Source: a virus. Taken from it: a stretch of 64,000 nucleotides of DNA. This document shows, piece by piece, positions 26,449-34,062 of this stretch (its first letter is position 1; each line of letters opens with the position of its first letter). Where the stretch lies: positions 1 through 64,000 of IMG/VR virus record IMGVR_UViG_3300045135_002262. One strand, written 5' to 3'. The notes beneath the pieces are model-generated. The model did no database searches and was not told the origin of the DNA. It was given only the letters and a program-made list of their open reading frames with translations. The translations under genes and the position numbers were made by a program.

Positions 26449-27969
26449 TTAACCTTTATAACTACTCTTCAAAGAAACGGTATGATTCCAAGAATCCCCA
26501 TCTTTCATATAATATCCATGACGAATAAATTGCACAGGCTCTACATAATCAAGACTAACTAACGGTTCTCCGAAAGCTGTAATGGTGCCCATATCTAATC
26601 CATCAAAATGGTTGAGTTTAATCTCTTCACAGTCTAATCTGTTAACCCAATGGATAGTTCCTTTTGCTTTAACATCTGTCTCCATACCTGAAAAACTGTC
26701 TGGGTAGTGCTCACAAAATACTTCCATGATTTTACCATCAACTTCAAGATAATCGACAGCTTTCACAATACAAACTCCTTTTAGTCTAACATTTCCACCT
26801 AATTTTAAGCGGTTGTATTTTCTATTTGCTTCTACTCTAAAATCATCGCGCTCAATCCAAAACTGCTCTGAGTAATTAACCTTTCGAGACCCGGCTGCAG
26901 TATCTTCTGGGTTATTTTCAAGTTGTGCAGTTCCCTCTTCAAATGGTGTAACGATCGTTAATTTAATTGGGTCTTTAACCACCATTCTACGCAATGCATT
27001 TTGATTTAATTCATCTCGTAAAATACCATCTAATAAACTACGCTCGATTACACTATCGCGCTTGGTAATTCCTACCTTATCACAAAAAGTTCTGATCGAG
27101 CTTGCTGTATATCCTCTACGTCTTAAACCTTTTAGTGTTGGCATTCTTGGGTCATCCCATCCATCAACTACACCATCTTCAACCAATTCTTTTAACCATC
27201 TTTTACTTAGTCGAATTCCTTCAACATTAAGTCTTGAGAATTCTATTTGACGTGGTAACGGTCTGTTTAAATCCAAATTCTCTAAAACCCAGTTATAGAA
27301 TGGTCGGTGTGGTTCAAACTCTAATGTACAAAGTGAATGAGTAATGCCTTCATACCAATCTGAAAGTGGATGTGCAAAATCATACATTGGATAGGCTTTA
27401 TACTTATCGCCAGTGTTATGGTGAATTGCATCAACTTTACGATAGATCACAGGATCTCTCATCAATAAGTTTGGATCTGCCATATCCACTTTAGCTCTTA
27501 AGACTGAATTAGATTTACCGTCTAAAAGATCTTGGAATAGCATTGCATTTTCTGAAGCAGTTCTATTTCTATATGGAGAGTCTTGACCTGGGTTTTCCAG
27601 ATCACCTTTCATTGCTGCGATTTCTTCACTCGTAGAATCATCAATATATGCAAGTCCTTTCTCGATTAACTCGGCTGCACAATCTCTTAAGAAATCAAAA
27701 TAGTCACTTGCCCAGAATGTATTGTCAGGTTGGAAGCCTAACCAATTAATATCCTCTTTAATACTATCAACAAAGATTTGATCTTCTGCTAATGGGTTAG
27801 TATCATCGAAACGTAAATTACATTCTGTGTTGTATTTTTTAGCTAAGCCAAAGTTAAGGCAAATAGCTTTAGCATGGCCTAAATGTAGATGGCCGTTAGG
27901 CTCCGGCGGGAATCTAAAGCGCAGATTCTGCTTATCTCCAGATTCTATAATTTCTTCAATAAAATTCAT
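26449..27969 (-). CDS. glnS: Glutaminyl-tRNA synthetase
   Basis: RFPPEPNGHLHLGH, RFDDTNP, YPMYDFAH, ITHSLCTLEF, LSKR, GWDDPRMPT, KGTIHWV. Confidence 0.95.
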   Translation of the reverse strand: MNFIEEIIESGDKQNLRFRFPPEPNGHLHLGHAKAICLNFGLAKKYNTECNLRFDDTNPLAEDQIFVDSIKEDINWLGFQPDNTFWASDYFDFLRDCAAELIEKGLAYIDDSTSEEIAAMKGDLENPGQDSPYRNRTASENAMLFQDLLDGKSNSVLRAKVDMADPNLLMRDPVIYRKVDAIHHNTGDKYKAYPMYDFAHPLSDWYEGITHSLCTLEFEPHRPFYNWVLENLDLNRPLPRQIEFSRLNVEGIRLSKRWLKELVEDGVVDGWDDPRMPTLKGLRRRGYTASSIRTFCDKVGITKRDSVIERSLLDGILRDELNQNALRRMVVKDPIKLTIVTPFEEGTAQLENNPEDTAAGSRKVNYSEQFWIERDDFRVEANRKYNRLKLGGNVRLKGVCIVKAVDYLEVDGKIMEVFCEHYPDSFSGMETDVKAKGTIHWVNRLDCEEIKLNHFDGLDMGTITAFGEPLVSLDYVEPVQFIRHGYYMKDGDSWNHTVSLKSSYKG

Positions 27970-28828: not shown

Positions 28829-29212
28829 TTACTTTTTTAGATCATTTACTTTATGAGAAAGCAGATCTACAAATGCTGTATTATCATTAAATTTAGCATT
28901 TAAATCGGCGATGTGTTTTGAAATACCATCTGCCATTTTGTCTGTACGAGAATCAACATACTTATAAAGTTCGTTTAAATTATCCTCGTGGTTTTGATAA
29001 AGTTTATCAGCATATTCATAATGCTTATGATTTATTTTATCAACTCTATCAATTTCTTGATCGATTCTACGCTCGATCATGTCGATGCGATCATAAAGAT
29101 CTTTTTCAGTGTTTGCGAACTCTTTTAGTTCACTCTTAATCCTAAACACACTCACAACAGCCATTACTACAGCCACTGAAAGCATACCTAAAACAAAATA
29201 AAGTGTTTCCAT
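28829..29212 (-). CDS. Membrane-anchored coiled-coil protein (start moved to METLYF)
   Basis: N-terminal TM helix; YVDSRTDK; the longer track ORF overlaps tRNAs. Confidence 0.7.
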   Translation of the reverse strand: METLYFVLGMLSVAVVMAVVSVFRIKSELKEFANTEKDLYDRIDMIERRIDQEIDRVDKINHKHYEYADKLYQNHEDNLNELYKYVDSRTDKMADGISKHIADLNAKFNDNTAFVDLLSHKVNDLKK

Positions 29213-29253
29213 AATTCTTAAATTTTTATTTATGGAATAGTAGCACTTTTTAG

Positions 29254-29325: not shown

Positions 29326-29338
29326 AAAAAACATTTAG

Positions 29339-29419
29339 TACACAAGGTGGGAATCGAACCCACACACTTAAAGTACCAGATCCTAAATCTGGCGCGTCTA
29401 CCAATTCCGCCACTTGTGC
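29339..29419 (-). tRNA. tRNA-Leu(TAG)
   Basis: TTTAGGA loop; variable arm. Confidence 0.93.
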
Positions 29420-29423
29420 AGTT

Positions 29424-29515
29424 TGCCGGGGTGGGATTTGATACCCACACAAAATACCTCCACTCGAGTTGGATATTCTACGGATGTCCGCGCCTCTGCT
29501 GTTGGGCTACCCGGC
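29424..29515 (-). ncRNA. Aberrant tRNA-like RNA without a canonical anticodon loop
   Basis: 6-bp acceptor GCCGGG/CCCGGC, D-like arm, truncated CGG-ACAT-CCG arm, long extra arm, T arm GTGGG-TATCAAAT-CCCAC. Confidence 0.7.
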
Positions 29516-29518
29516 TAG

Positions 29519-29601
29519 TTGGAGTGGAGGGACTCGAACCCCCAAGCCTAAAAAGGACCTGATTTACAGTCAGGCGAGCCAACCAATTGCTCAACACTCC
29601 A
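29519..29601 (-). tRNA. tRNA-Tyr(GTA)
   Basis: CTGTAAA loop; variable arm. Confidence 0.9.
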
Positions 29602-29606
29602 TTAAT

Positions 29607-29820
29607 AAACAGGGTTTCTGTTTTAAAGTTATCGTACCATCGCGAATGGACAACTCCCTGTATTTTATAGAGGCTCCCTCACCGACACGAATCACTTTTC
29701 CCATATTCTCTCCGGGGCACTGCCGTTAAATGAGCCACGATGTACACTTCAAATATTCCGACCTACTAAGTGATTTGTTTCAGTCCATATACTTCAAGGA
29801 TCCAGATCGCTTCTTCTCCT
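29607..29820 (-). ncRNA. Unassigned structured RNA between tRNA-Ile and tRNA-Tyr
   Basis: GGCTC/GAGCC enclosing GGCA/TGTC; ACAGGG/CCCTGT enclosing AGTTGTC/GATAACT and CCAT/ATGG. Confidence 0.5.
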
Positions 29821-29825
29821 CTTTG

Positions 29826-30375: not shown

Positions 30376-30564
30376 TTAAAGCGCATGACCTAACTTTTCG
30401 TGTAACCTCTTCATGTGTTTACATGGTCTGTATCGACTAAATTCTCTTGCTTTACAATCACAATCTACAATCTTCCAATCTGTAACCTTAACTCTGTAAT
30501 AGCTAAGCTTGCCAGTTTTCTTATTGCGAGATCCCATCTCTTTGTAATACCAAGTTTTACTCAT
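30376..30564 (-). CDS. SWIM-type zinc-finger protein
   Basis: CDC...PCKH. Confidence 0.7.
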   Translation of the reverse strand: MSKTWYYKEMGSRNKKTGKLSYYRVKVTDWKIVDCDCKAREFSRYRPCKHMKRLHEKLGHAL

Positions 30565-30712
30565 TGTCTAGATCTTTTTTCCAGGACTTATCCTTTCGGT
30601 TATACTTATTTTTATCACCATGATCCTTTTGAATCATCTTACGACGAATCAATTGGCTAAGGTGTCTTTCGTTATACCCATCAATATCAGAACGGGAGGT
30701 CTTCTTTTTCAT
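30557..30712 (-). CDS. 51-aa basic protein (not in ORF track)
   Basis: MKKKTSRSDIDGYNERHLSQLIRRKMIQKDHGDKNKYNRKDKSWKKDLDNE; overlaps both neighbours. Confidence 0.55.
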   Translation of the reverse strand: MKKKTSRSDIDGYNERHLSQLIRRKMIQKDHGDKNKYNRKDKSWKKDLDNE

Positions 30713-31505: not shown

Positions 31506-34013
31506 TTATCTCTTTATAATCTTTAAAGACTTGGTTTCTTTTTGAGTCTTAACTAATACAATATACATTCCTGTTGGAAATCTTGACATATTAAAAGTAA
31601 ATATGTTATCGCTCGTTGTCTTATTAAATAACATTTGACCTGAAAGGTTATAAATAAAGACTTGACTATTATTGGTTAAACCAGTGATATTGATTTGATC
31701 AACTGTTGGATTAGGATATGCAACAATCTTTGTGATTATAGGATCAACTGGATCTACAGGATCTCCACCTCCGTTATCTCCATCGCCGTTACCGTTATCT
31801 CCATCTCCATTGTCATCTCCACCATCTCCATCTCCATCGCCATTTCCGCCGCCATTGTCCCCGCCGCCTGAAGTTTCTATTGTAATTTTACCATTTACAG
31901 GTATTTGAAGCGAATATATAATATTTAGGTTCTCATCAACCGAATCAATCTGTGCGGTTGCAACATTAAATCCATTATAAAGACTCTTATCTAAAGAACC
32001 TATAAGATCTTCTAAATAATTATCTAAGTTTCTTAATTCTGATATATCAGTAACAACAGTATCTTTTTTAATATTTACAAACTTAAATGGATTTGTAAAT
32101 GCATCTACTATCTCAAAATCTATAATTCCAGATTGATTTAAAACATATGTAATAGAATCATTTTCAATTTCAGGTTGTGCAAAATCATAAGACTTTAAAT
32201 AAGGATCTGAGATTTGATTATTATCAATAGCTACTTTAATTTCGTTTAGATATTCTTGGTACAATGGTTCTAATGTAGTATCATTTGCTATTTGATCTAA
32301 AAGTGCAAAGAATTCTGTTGCATTATCTTCTTTAATAAATTTAAACAAGTCTTTTAATTCACTGTACTTATTGTTATATAAGAAACCCCATGTAGCTTCT
32401 GAGTACGCATACATCTTAAACCCATAATCATAACTTGTATTTATAGATTTCTTAAGAGTAAATGTGTCGTTGTTATAAATGTTATTTGCTATTTCATAAC
32501 CCATAGCTTCTGAAATAAAGAAGCCTTTTTGTAGACTTGCACCAGCTACAAAATTTGCAAGACCCTCAACCCAGAATACAGACTTTCTAAGATCATAAAT
32601 ATCTGATTCTAAATAATCACCTTCAATATTATATCTGCCATCTAAGTAGTGTACATATTCATGTTTAAGTAACATTTCTAACGTTAGCACAGGATCATTT
32701 CTATCAAATGTGTACAATCCTTTGTTTTCAATATAAATACCTCCATTATTTGTTGGCACATTAAATAAAATACTTCCATATGTGCTATAGGCAAAATCAG
32801 ATTCAAAAATATAAAGATCTATTGCATAGTTAGGATCTGATGCTAAAGGTGTTGTATCACCTGATAACTTAAAGAAATTAGCCCTAGCTTCTCTTAAGGC
32901 TAAATACATTTTTTGCACTCGACTAGGACTTATATTTGTATGTATGATAATAGAATCATCGTCATACTTATATGTGTTTTGAAAGTTTAATTCATAATAC
33001 CTTTGTTTATACGTTTCAATATCCACATCAAACTGTATTCCTGTCATGTGAATAATATTCGCAATAGTTCCTAATAGTTTAGCATGCCTATAATCACCAA
33101 ATTCATATGAATTTATTAATGCAGAAGTTCTATTAGCTAAACCAACTAAATCATAATTAGGCAGTATTGTTCTTGCATATTCATCATATTTTACAAATAT
33201 AGGATATAAGATATTAATAAAATTACCTGCAATATATTCTTGGTTATTATCAATAAACCAATCATTTTCAATTATACTAAATATACTATTAATAAACCTA
33301 TCATCTGCTGCACTTTTAATAATAAAAGCATTATCGCCATTTAAATAACCTCGCCAAATTATACTTGAAATTGCACTTAAATGAGTTACCTGTGGCGTTG
33401 AGTGTTCAATATCATCAATTGATTGCTTCTGTAAATTAAGCATTATTAAATCATACGCATCTGCCCTGTGGCCTGGAATATCTAATAGTAATGTTGCAAA
33501 CCATCTAAAATAATCTAAATCATCAGACTTTAACCAATATTTTTCTGAATTGTATAAAACTTCTAATGTAATTAATAACTCAGAGATATAAGATTCTGAT
33601 AAAGAAACCGAGCTTTGATAAAATGCATGATATTCCAACATTTTAAAGTATTTTATAAACTTTTCTGGATTCTTATCTGATAGGTTTATATCTATTAATT
33701 GTATAATATTTTCTTTAAAATATTGTGCAGCTTTAATAGCGTTTTGACTTGAAAATATAGTTGTTTGACCTGATTGTGAAAAGTTTTCTAAGAATTGTAT
33801 GACAGTTTCTAAATCTGTAGATAATAGATATTCAACTGCATCTACTTCTTGTTTAGCAGATTGTGCTATTGTAAACTTATAATCCTTTTTAGTTTTAGGA
33901 TTAATCTTTGCTTCAACCGTACAGAAATAATTATCAGTTGGTCTTTCGATTGGCGGTTCTTGTGCTAATAAACTTAGCGGTAAAAATGTTAGAAATAATA
34001 ATAGTTTTTTCAT
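31506..34013 (-). CDS. M9-family collagenase with signal peptide and T9SS type-A C-terminal domain
   Basis: MKKLLLFL leader; TNNGGIYIE, LKHEYVHYLDGRY, WVEGLA; Gly/Asp linker; AYPNPT..IYNLSGQ..GMYIV..KIIK. Confidence 0.9.
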   Translation of the reverse strand: MKKLLLFLTFLPLSLLAQEPPIERPTDNYFCTVEAKINPKTKKDYKFTIAQSAKQEVDAVEYLLSTDLETVIQFLENFSQSGQTTIFSSQNAIKAAQYFKENIIQLIDINLSDKNPEKFIKYFKMLEYHAFYQSSVSLSESYISELLITLEVLYNSEKYWLKSDDLDYFRWFATLLLDIPGHRADAYDLIMLNLQKQSIDDIEHSTPQVTHLSAISSIIWRGYLNGDNAFIIKSAADDRFINSIFSIIENDWFIDNNQEYIAGNFINILYPIFVKYDEYARTILPNYDLVGLANRTSALINSYEFGDYRHAKLLGTIANIIHMTGIQFDVDIETYKQRYYELNFQNTYKYDDDSIIIHTNISPSRVQKMYLALREARANFFKLSGDTTPLASDPNYAIDLYIFESDFAYSTYGSILFNVPTNNGGIYIENKGLYTFDRNDPVLTLEMLLKHEYVHYLDGRYNIEGDYLESDIYDLRKSVFWVEGLANFVAGASLQKGFFISEAMGYEIANNIYNNDTFTLKKSINTSYDYGFKMYAYSEATWGFLYNNKYSELKDLFKFIKEDNATEFFALLDQIANDTTLEPLYQEYLNEIKVAIDNNQISDPYLKSYDFAQPEIENDSITYVLNQSGIIDFEIVDAFTNPFKFVNIKKDTVVTDISELRNLDNYLEDLIGSLDKSLYNGFNVATAQIDSVDENLNIIYSLQIPVNGKITIETSGGGDNGGGNGDGDGDGGDDNGDGDNGNGDGDNGGGDPVDPVDPIITKIVAYPNPTVDQINITGLTNNSQVFIYNLSGQMLFNKTTSDNIFTFNMSRFPTGMYIVLVKTQKETKSLKIIKR

Positions 34014-34030
34014 TAGTAAAAATTTATAGT

Positions 34031-34062
34031 CAAATATACAAAAAATATTTGACATAAAAAAA
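34031..34062 (-). promoter_or_regulatory. Class I promoter of the collagenase gene
   Basis: TTTTTTTATGTC..TTTTGTATATTTG. Confidence 0.7.

Follow-up and report, generated by a model that had tools for sequence, protein, structure and literature searches.

The tRNA-like stable RNAs encoded by phages T4 (rnaC and rnaD) and T5 (RNA1, RNA2 and RNA3) have long been annotated without a known function. One of them, T5 RNA1 (rna1, T5s03; NC_005859, positions 30501-30644), is annotated as 'tRNA-like stable RNA with unknown functions', and its sequence combines an acceptor stem and a T arm with a leucine-type D arm (GCCGGAAUUGGUAGACGG) and some 80 nt of insert. Here we compare with these RNAs an element located at 29423-29516 on the minus strand of a 64,000-nt stretch of viral DNA, hereafter the window, namely the first 64 kb of the 78.8-kb IMG/VR virus record IMGVR_UViG_3300045135_002262, which is judged to be about 35% complete. 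The initial annotation of this locus, made from the letters only, described a tRNA-shaped RNA with a collapsed anticodon arm inside a tRNA array, and proposed a tRNA mimic. Our analysis indicates that the element very probably descends from a tRNA-Leu with a short variable loop (type I), that it does not decode, and that it is possibly a functional RNA similar in kind to T5 RNA1.

Fold and probable leucine ancestry of the element

The limits of the element, 29423-29516, were set by its end-to-end alignment to a covariance model of type I tRNA-Leu, termed R2 (44.9 bits; see below), and by its minimum-free-energy (MFE) fold; position i of the RNA corresponds to window coordinate 29516-i. Its length is 94 nt if the acceptor is counted as seven 'pairs', with A.A at 1:72 and the discriminator A at 29423, or 92 nt (29424-29515) if the acceptor is read as a 6-bp stem, the discriminator A then being at 29424. 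The 5' strand of this stem, GCCGGG (29510-29515), forms six of six pairs with the 3' strand, CCCGGC (29425-29430), with pair probabilities of 0.985-0.998, and after the latter come two A residues (29424 and 29423) and a spacer of 3 nt. Inwards lie U8, A9 and the D arm (UAGCCCAACAGCAGAGGC; 29492-29509), an 18-mer with exact matches in both IMG/VR and GTDB, whose 3-bp stem GCC/GGC (29507-29492) closes a 10-nt loop without G18G19. The anticodon arm should begin next, and at this point we found G26 and a mini-hairpin, CGG-ACAU-CCG (29480-29491 with G26, the hairpin at 29490-29481; pair probability 0.99), and then, in the MFE fold, an AU-rich, bulged 29-nt hairpin (29451-29479) with the layout AGAAUAUCCA-ACUCGAG-UGGA-GG-UAUUUU and ACUCGAG as its loop. 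The T arm (29431-29448), recovered by the R2 alignment and by the fold, reads GUGGG / UAUCAAAU / CCCAC and has an 8-nt loop.

The MFE structure, at -33.2 kcal/mol (z of -2.4 to -2.5), is a five-way junction exactly as drawn in the initial annotation, and every part listed there, namely the 6-bp acceptor stem, the 5-bp T stem, the 8-nt T loop, the CGG-ACAU-CCG hairpin and the oversized arm, is present in the sequence. The stems of the tRNA body are complete (acceptor 6/6, D 3/3 and T 5/5, or 14 body pairs), and their pair probabilities are at least 0.96.

Bacterial tRNA-Leu is usually described as long-armed. A short-armed form, tRNA-Leu(CAA), has been documented in Streptomyces coelicolor (PMC6614811). 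The D arm of the element leads to tRNAs of this latter type. First, IMG/VR contains 16 exact copies of the 18-nt word formed by U8, A9 and the D arm, against about two expected by chance, and most of them fall in tRNAs of 72-77 nt with the leucine anticodons UAG, CAG, GAG, AAG, UAA and CAA. In these relatives the variable loop has 4-5 nt, the T loop reads UGCAAAU and position 73 is A; they are often arranged as tandem Leu clusters within large phage arrays, and the element likewise adjoins another tRNA-Leu gene. Second, GTDB genomes contain this word in 98 stretches, most of them from contigs with the label Verrucomicrobiota; 91 of the 92 copies called by ARAGORN are tRNA-Leu, and a further 20 copies, near the chance expectation of about 17, are uncalled. 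Short tRNA-Leu genes are present, too, in phages related to the window phage.

The alignment of this family, A3, has 25 members, and R2 was built for this same family. It folds as a class I cloverleaf, with 97.6% of cells paired and covariation at 20 of 20 pairs, which was equalled by none of 500 shuffles. With the family D-arm pattern, UAGCCCAA(C/U)(A)GCAGAGGC with U8, A14 and a 3-bp stem, the element is identical at 18 of 18 positions, and it retains every body position at which the family is invariant or almost so. R2 aligns the acceptor stem, the perfect D arm, the T arm and the terminal GU of the variable loop, and leaves 37 nt unaligned, the mini-hairpin among them, where an anticodon arm of 17 nt is expected. 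What is missing is the family's 5-bp anticodon stem and its 7-nt loop with a leucine anticodon (NAG or NAA, with A35 invariant). Against the 7-bp acceptor of the family, the element has 6 bp and A.A at 1:72, together with a T stem of 5/5, an A discriminator and GU before the T stem. U8, A14, the A discriminator, the GU-ended variable loop and the helix layout are common to the element, the array and Verrucomicrobiota family and S. coelicolor tRNA-Leu(CAA), whereas the lack of an anticodon arm, the T loop UAUCAAAU in place of UGCAAAU and the mismatch at 1:72 set the element apart.

Based on these results, the element is very probably a non-decoding derivative of a type I tRNA-Leu. Its 17-nt anticodon arm has apparently been replaced by 37 unrelated AU-rich bases, and its T loop appears to have grown from 7 to 8 nt. 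Since the D arm (18/18) and the body pairs (14/14) are perfect, the anticodon arm seems to have been swapped or rearranged rather than eroded. The argument of the initial annotation, that intact stems speak against simple decay, is thus upheld for the tRNA body and fails for the two new hairpins, which are no more stable than shuffles (see below). That homologues might turn out to be ordinary tRNAs, named there as a point that would count against a mimic, is half borne out, as the D-arm and body relatives are ordinary type I tRNA-Leu genes. Two other origins were considered and rejected, namely a tandem copy of the neighbouring tRNA-Leu(UAG), as the D arm is of type I and not of type II (a MAFFT alignment was uninformative), and the remnant of a group I intron, as only 37-42 nt are available and no anticodon stem flanks them.

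Checks with ARAGORN and Rfam had been proposed in the initial annotation; by default ARAGORN does not call the element, and neither the tRNA (RF00005), tmRNA (RF00023) and YrlA models of Rfam nor any other of its families matches 29424-29515 at the gathering score or at E<=10. The Y-RNA-like module suggested at the outset is not supported, as no YrlA, Y-RNA or tmRNA match was found at this threshold. With relaxed settings, ARAGORN reports the element as a 97-nt tRNA-Tyr(gta), modelled with a 6-bp anticodon stem, the loop CCGUAGA and a 22-nt variable region, and because this is the sole additional call across the whole 78.8-kb record, the tRNA likeness of the element is specific. Nowhere in the element does a stem of 5 bp close a 7-nt loop that would set U33 and a leucine anticodon at the proper distance from the 3' end. 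The loop of the mini-hairpin has only 4 nt, and the long hairpin has C at position 33 and no U33; its stem, at about 10 bp, exceeds the length of an anticodon arm, which places its loop too far from the 3' end for decoding. Lacking an anticodon stem-loop of normal geometry with U33 and a leucine anticodon, the element cannot decode, and the collapsed anticodon arm of the initial annotation is confirmed, R2 skipping 37 nt in place of 17.

The type I tRNA-Leu family, as sampled here (L156-L171 from IMG/VR and L172-L269 from GTDB contigs), shows features of its own. All six leucine anticodons are represented in it, with an almost invariant D arm. In its tRNA-Leu(GAG) genes the anticodon loop UCGAG(A/G)(A/G) recurs (L157:1378-1450, L162:4050-4123, L171:6738-6809 and several Verrucomicrobiota contigs, e.g. 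L182 and L185), which puts C at position 33, a position almost always occupied by U in tRNAs. Some members are interrupted: L164:3160-3367 has an insert with an HNH-endonuclease-like frame after the 5' strand of the anticodon stem, and several Prosthecobacter-type tRNA-Leu(GAG) genes are interrupted within the T loop (L182, L185, L201 and L234 are listed for interrupted genes). L157:1668-1772, on the minus strand, is a remnant of the 5' half of a type I tRNA-Leu.

Phage tRNA-Leu bodies carrying inserts

Phage RNAs with a tRNA-Leu body and an insert, but no anticodon arm, are treated here as a descriptive class and not as a curated family. The class is real and has at least one long-annotated member. 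A constant leucine body, AGUCAGG...CCUGACUA, with a type II Leu D arm and a normal T arm, carries 13 different middles in RNAs of 68-146 nt at eight loci (L051, L068, L069, L076, L077, L084, L133 and L144), with several copies per phage. In addition, R2 finds L076:161-264, L018:6341-6463 and L047:14133-14238, which combine a tRNA body with a large insert and are not called by ARAGORN. Closest in layout is a 103-nt tRNA-like gene, L034:8659-8761, in the tRNA array of a 253-kb viral contig, which was found only by means of a T-arm 16-mer: it shares the 8-nt T loop of the element and follows its layout, from GG-less D arm through tetraloop mini-hairpin (GGCG-GAAA-CGUC) and long hairpin to T arm. 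Our literature search found no paper on anticodon-less phage tRNA-Leu-like RNAs.

The element has the position of such an RNA. It lies on the same strand as the tRNA cluster and is tightly packed into it, with gaps of 2-4 nt to tRNA-Tyr (ending at 29518/29519) and to tRNA-Leu(UAG) (starting at 29419), in line with the tRNA-like spacing reported initially. The recurrence of one body with different inserts, within or between phages, was not found for the body of the element: no second RNA with this body turned up in the 78.8-kb record (about 35% of the genome) or in IMG/VR.

With middling confidence, we favour the reading that the element is a maintained, processed and working tRNA-like RNA of the T5 RNA1 kind. 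It would be transcribed together with the Ile-Tyr-X-Leu-Arg row and excised by RNase P and the 3' processing enzymes, since these need only the acceptor/T-arm helix; CCA would then be added, since it is encoded neither by the element nor by its neighbours. The product might persist as a small tRNA-like RNA, like T5 RNA1 and the recurrent phage RNAs with a Leu body and an insert, and might act through its tRNA body, off the ribosome, by occupying leucyl-tRNA synthetase (LeuRS), the CCA enzyme or some protein that targets the body or the 3' end. Bacterial LeuRS charges its substrate without need of the anticodon arm, deletion of which causes a 2.5-fold loss of affinity (PMC2377443). A role as a synthetase ligand or as an off-ribosome aminoacyl donor is possible, both being weakened by the altered elbow. 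More tentatively, the element may belong, as a functional RNA, to a class of phage RNAs that is widespread yet essentially undescribed, in which the Leu body serves as an insert carrier or as a body mimic. Of the tRNA mimic put forward in the initial annotation, what survives is a tRNA-derived, tRNA-shaped, non-decoding unit of a tRNA operon, its nuclease-decoy variant being unlikely and its Y-RNA-like variant unsupported.

A working RNA or a recent relic

Several observations weigh against a maintained, working RNA, and we considered them together with the rival that they favour, namely a young pseudogene. According to this explanation, a type I tRNA-Leu would have been acquired with tRNA-Leu(UAG) and disabled by a rearrangement of the anticodon region, an indel in the T loop and a mismatch at 1:72; the RNA may still be excised, albeit functionless. 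We regard this as a substantial possibility, somewhat short of an even chance.

The first of these observations concerns the insert, which is no more structured than chance. The 42-nt middle of the element folds no better than its dinucleotide shuffles (z = 0.0, with 46% of the shuffles equal), versions of the whole RNA with a shuffled middle fold almost as stably as the native one (z = -0.34), and the long hairpin alone reaches -3.6 kcal/mol (z = -0.18). The statistical fold signal therefore resides in the tRNA body.

The second is that the element makes three separate departures from its family, namely the lost anticodon arm, a broken elbow rule and A.A at 1:72. In R2, its T arm differs from the family's GGUGCAAAUCC by one inserted A and by a change of G55 to U. 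Of 216 distinct short tRNA-Leu, 194 combine a GG-less D loop with a U-G-C T loop and none combines it with U55; the element breaks this rule, combining a GG-less D loop with an 8-nt T loop with UAUC where the family has the 7-nt U-G-C-R-A-N-U, and its pair 1:72 is A.A in the 7/5 frame of the family. The rule extends beyond leucine: among all distinct tRNAs called by ARAGORN in L156-L269, 521 have no GG and UGC, 251 have GG and UUC, four have no GG and UUC, and 35 have GG and UGC, which suggests that these array tRNAs use an alternative tRNA elbow across isotypes. In the type II system of Aquifex, the elbow pairs G18-U55 and G19-C56, which the element lacks, are critical for LeuRS (PMC2377443); in the type I system of Streptomyces the elbow matters little (PMC6614811).

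The exact 8-nt T loop of the element is also seen in further irregular tRNA-like genes from unrelated phage arrays. The D-loop GG is missing as well from at least five of these genes (L027, L031, L034, L047 and L050), and this recurrence of the T loop speaks against a relic. The combination of an 8-nt T loop with a GG-less D loop could be a third workable elbow, or merely reflect a shared relaxed constraint.

Third, charging is in doubt. E. coli LeuRS does not charge type I tRNA-Leu (PMC6614811), and the window phage's own two decoding tRNA-Leu genes (UAG and UAA) are both of the ordinary long-arm type II. A type I tRNA-Leu may thus be uncharged in the host, as a relic would allow.

Fourth, the element with this insert is a singleton in the collections searched, a set outside which near-identical records possibly lie. 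The exact 26-mer of T arm and acceptor has no match in IMG/VR, a probe of the tRNA-Leu variable arm gave no orthologue, and a probe of the tRNA-Tyr 3' end gave two loci, both with different downstream sequence. No match was obtained in JGI metagenomes for a pattern of the T loop with the Leu D arm, in GTDB genomes for a pattern of the D loop with the T loop, or in IMG/VR for a type I D arm followed by an enlarged middle. Five related phage records lack the element according to BLAST and to a single-sequence model, R1, which over 72 sources returned only generic tRNAs and loci that had been picked for the same T arm. Neither the record nor about 270 fetched loci contain a second copy of the insert, and no source for it was found elsewhere in the record. 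The element is likewise absent from all 12 loci of relatives of the neighbouring Glx-tRNA synthetase, and from the loci of relatives (34 viral and 69 metagenomic, all at most 54% identical) of the 128-aa protein encoded at 28829-29215 of the window.

Metagenome contigs add to this picture. In a contig from an estuary run, X3, both flanks are identical to the window and 29328 is joined to 29518 with two other letters between, so that the element, tRNA-Leu(UAG) and their spacers form a two-gene module of 189 nt (29329-29517, minus strand) that is present or absent as a unit. Since it is missing from this near-identical relative, the module is dispensable. No contig from runs X1 and X3 covers the insert (about 29446-29517). 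A diverged contig from run X2 matches tRNA-Tyr and the first 25 nt of the element, and then mismatches where the anticodon arm would start, which fits a relative with a different, possibly ordinary, tRNA-Leu at this site. From the RNA run X15, no contig falls on any part of the element; the phage variant in X15 may lack the module.

A relic would also be in keeping with other broken members of the family, L157:1744 (a 5' half and remnant) and L164 (the HNH-like insert). However, slow neutral decay would not erase the anticodon arm and yet leave the D arm at 18/18 and 14 pairs perfect, and because the body is this intact, the break, if the element is a relic, must be recent. Phage genomes, moreover, lose useless DNA fast, and unique inserts are the norm in the recurring phage Leu-body class, so the uniqueness of this one says little.

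The remaining rivals fare much worse than a relic. A decoy for anticodon nucleases had been suggested in the initial annotation. Such a role, in which the element would draw off an enzyme like PrrC, RloC, PARIS or a retron effector in place of host or phage tRNA, is in our view very unlikely. Phage tRNAs that counter tRNA-cutting defences are known (PMC10264068, PMC11464382 and PMC11555353), and the element does lie within a tRNA array; however, the known cases rely on an anticodon loop that is present but altered, and here the loop read by such enzymes is missing, no anticodon stem-loop of normal geometry being available for binding. An odd but decoding tRNA is hardly credible, either as the tRNA-Tyr(GUA) of relaxed ARAGORN, which was rejected because its cloverleaf is 5.8 kcal/mol worse than the MFE fold, has an anticodon-stem pair probability of 0.000, requires C33, G37 and a C.A mismatch and has 9 unpaired nucleotides ahead of the T stem, while a normal tRNA-Tyr(GUA) adjoins and the D arm is leucine-type, not tyrosine-type, or as a tRNA reading through the ACUCGAG loop of the long hairpin, whose UCGAG motif also occurs in anticodon loops of the family's tRNA-Leu(GAG) but which has the stem length, C33 and distance from the 3' end described above.

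Setting of the locus and comparison with known systems

The window has a G+C content of about 35%, and its large listed open frames at 22-36 kb are almost all on the minus strand. ARAGORN and Rfam together place 16 tRNA genes in it. Amid these is encoded a class I tRNA synthetase of the Glu/Gln type (26449-27969, minus strand). The window also encodes homing endonucleases and an M9 collagenase whose C-terminal domain is of the type IX secretion kind (31506-34055, minus strand). The type IX secretion tail of the collagenase points to a large phage of a probable Bacteroidota host, and the sequencing runs that contain related sequence are marine and estuarine. Immediately upstream of the element is tRNA-Tyr(GUA) (29518-29601, minus strand; ARAGORN and Rfam), and its downstream partner is the ordinary, long-arm type II tRNA-Leu(UAG) (29338-29419, minus strand; ARAGORN and Rfam, 60.4 bits).

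Further unusual sequences were noted at this locus and in its relatives. Between tRNA-Ile and tRNA-Tyr there is a 223-nt spacer (29602-29824, minus strand) without an open reading frame and without an Rfam match. The near-identical X3 contig omits 29606-29810 of this spacer, and contigs of the RNA-library run X15 cover it, one of them adding 97 letters between 29662 and 29669; the spacer may be a separate present-or-absent module, with another small RNA. In a distant relative, L113:824-922 is a 99-nt, AT-rich and weakly folding tRNA-like gene directly upstream of tRNA-Leu(UAG), the position of the element, with an 8-nt 'anticodon' loop, UAGUAUGC, a long extra arm and a sequence unlike that of the element. 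Three mutually similar tRNA-like genes of 85-89 nt (L072:2877-2961, L085:2865-2950 and L077:2235-2323), called by relaxed ARAGORN only, combine an acceptor stem of 8 bp with the motif AGGGU(U)AACA and a CCAAAUU tail; those in L072 and L085 lie immediately upstream of homologues of the 128-aa protein, and that in L077 about 680 nt upstream. ARAGORN assigns no type to a conserved tRNA just downstream of homologues of this protein (L067:3366-3442, L104:2860-2938, L118:1948-2024 and L120:2866-2942), the anticodon loop of which, GCUAAGAC, has 8 nt.

The element is a very small and easily handled example of its kind (92-94 nt, with a 37-nt insert), and it ties this kind of RNA to a specific ancestor, a type I tRNA-Leu. 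If it is indeed a working RNA, the Leu body would be among the few tRNA bodies that are processed, CCA-tailed and probably charged without an anticodon, and such a conversion would have affected a type I Leu body as well, one whose elbow (8-nt T loop and GG-less D loop) would be of a third kind. Its off-ribosome roles would then be occupying LeuRS or a defence protein aimed at the body or the 3' end, or donating leucine. The repeated use of the leucine body fits the fact that LeuRS does not read the anticodon, and for this same reason leucine charging and off-ribosome retention can be tested directly. Even as a mere relic, the element would still record an origin of such RNAs by a swap of the anticodon arm on an otherwise intact body.

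Compared with known systems, the tRNA-like domain of tmRNA resembles the element in that its acceptor stem and T arm are accompanied by a reduced D region and that a long helix stands at the place of a long variable arm, the anticodon arm being absent. It differs in its G3:U70 alanine identity, tag frame, pseudoknots and SmpB, whereas the element has C3-G70, no frame and no Rfam match to tmRNA. The species 1 and species 2 RNAs of T4 (rnaC and rnaD; NC_000866, 70908-71171) are likewise small stable RNAs of a tRNA cluster, made from the same precursors, and rnaC has a T arm and an acceptor-like strand at its 3' end. At 139 and 119 nt, with no leucine-type D arm in the sequences read and no homology to the element, they are looser analogues. 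The closest known systems are T5 RNA1 and, listed with it, T5 RNA2 and RNA3. T5 RNA1 has 144 nt, a type II Leu D arm with GG and a 7-nt T loop, against 92-94 nt, a type I body and an 8-nt loop in the element; a type II D arm is also found in the AGTCAGG family. Beyond generic tRNA parts, T5 RNA1 and the element have no sequence in common, and R2 gives T5 RNA1 20.3 bits. What they share is their organization: both lie within a phage tRNA cluster, and in both a non-tRNA insert replaces the anticodon arm on a leucine-type body.

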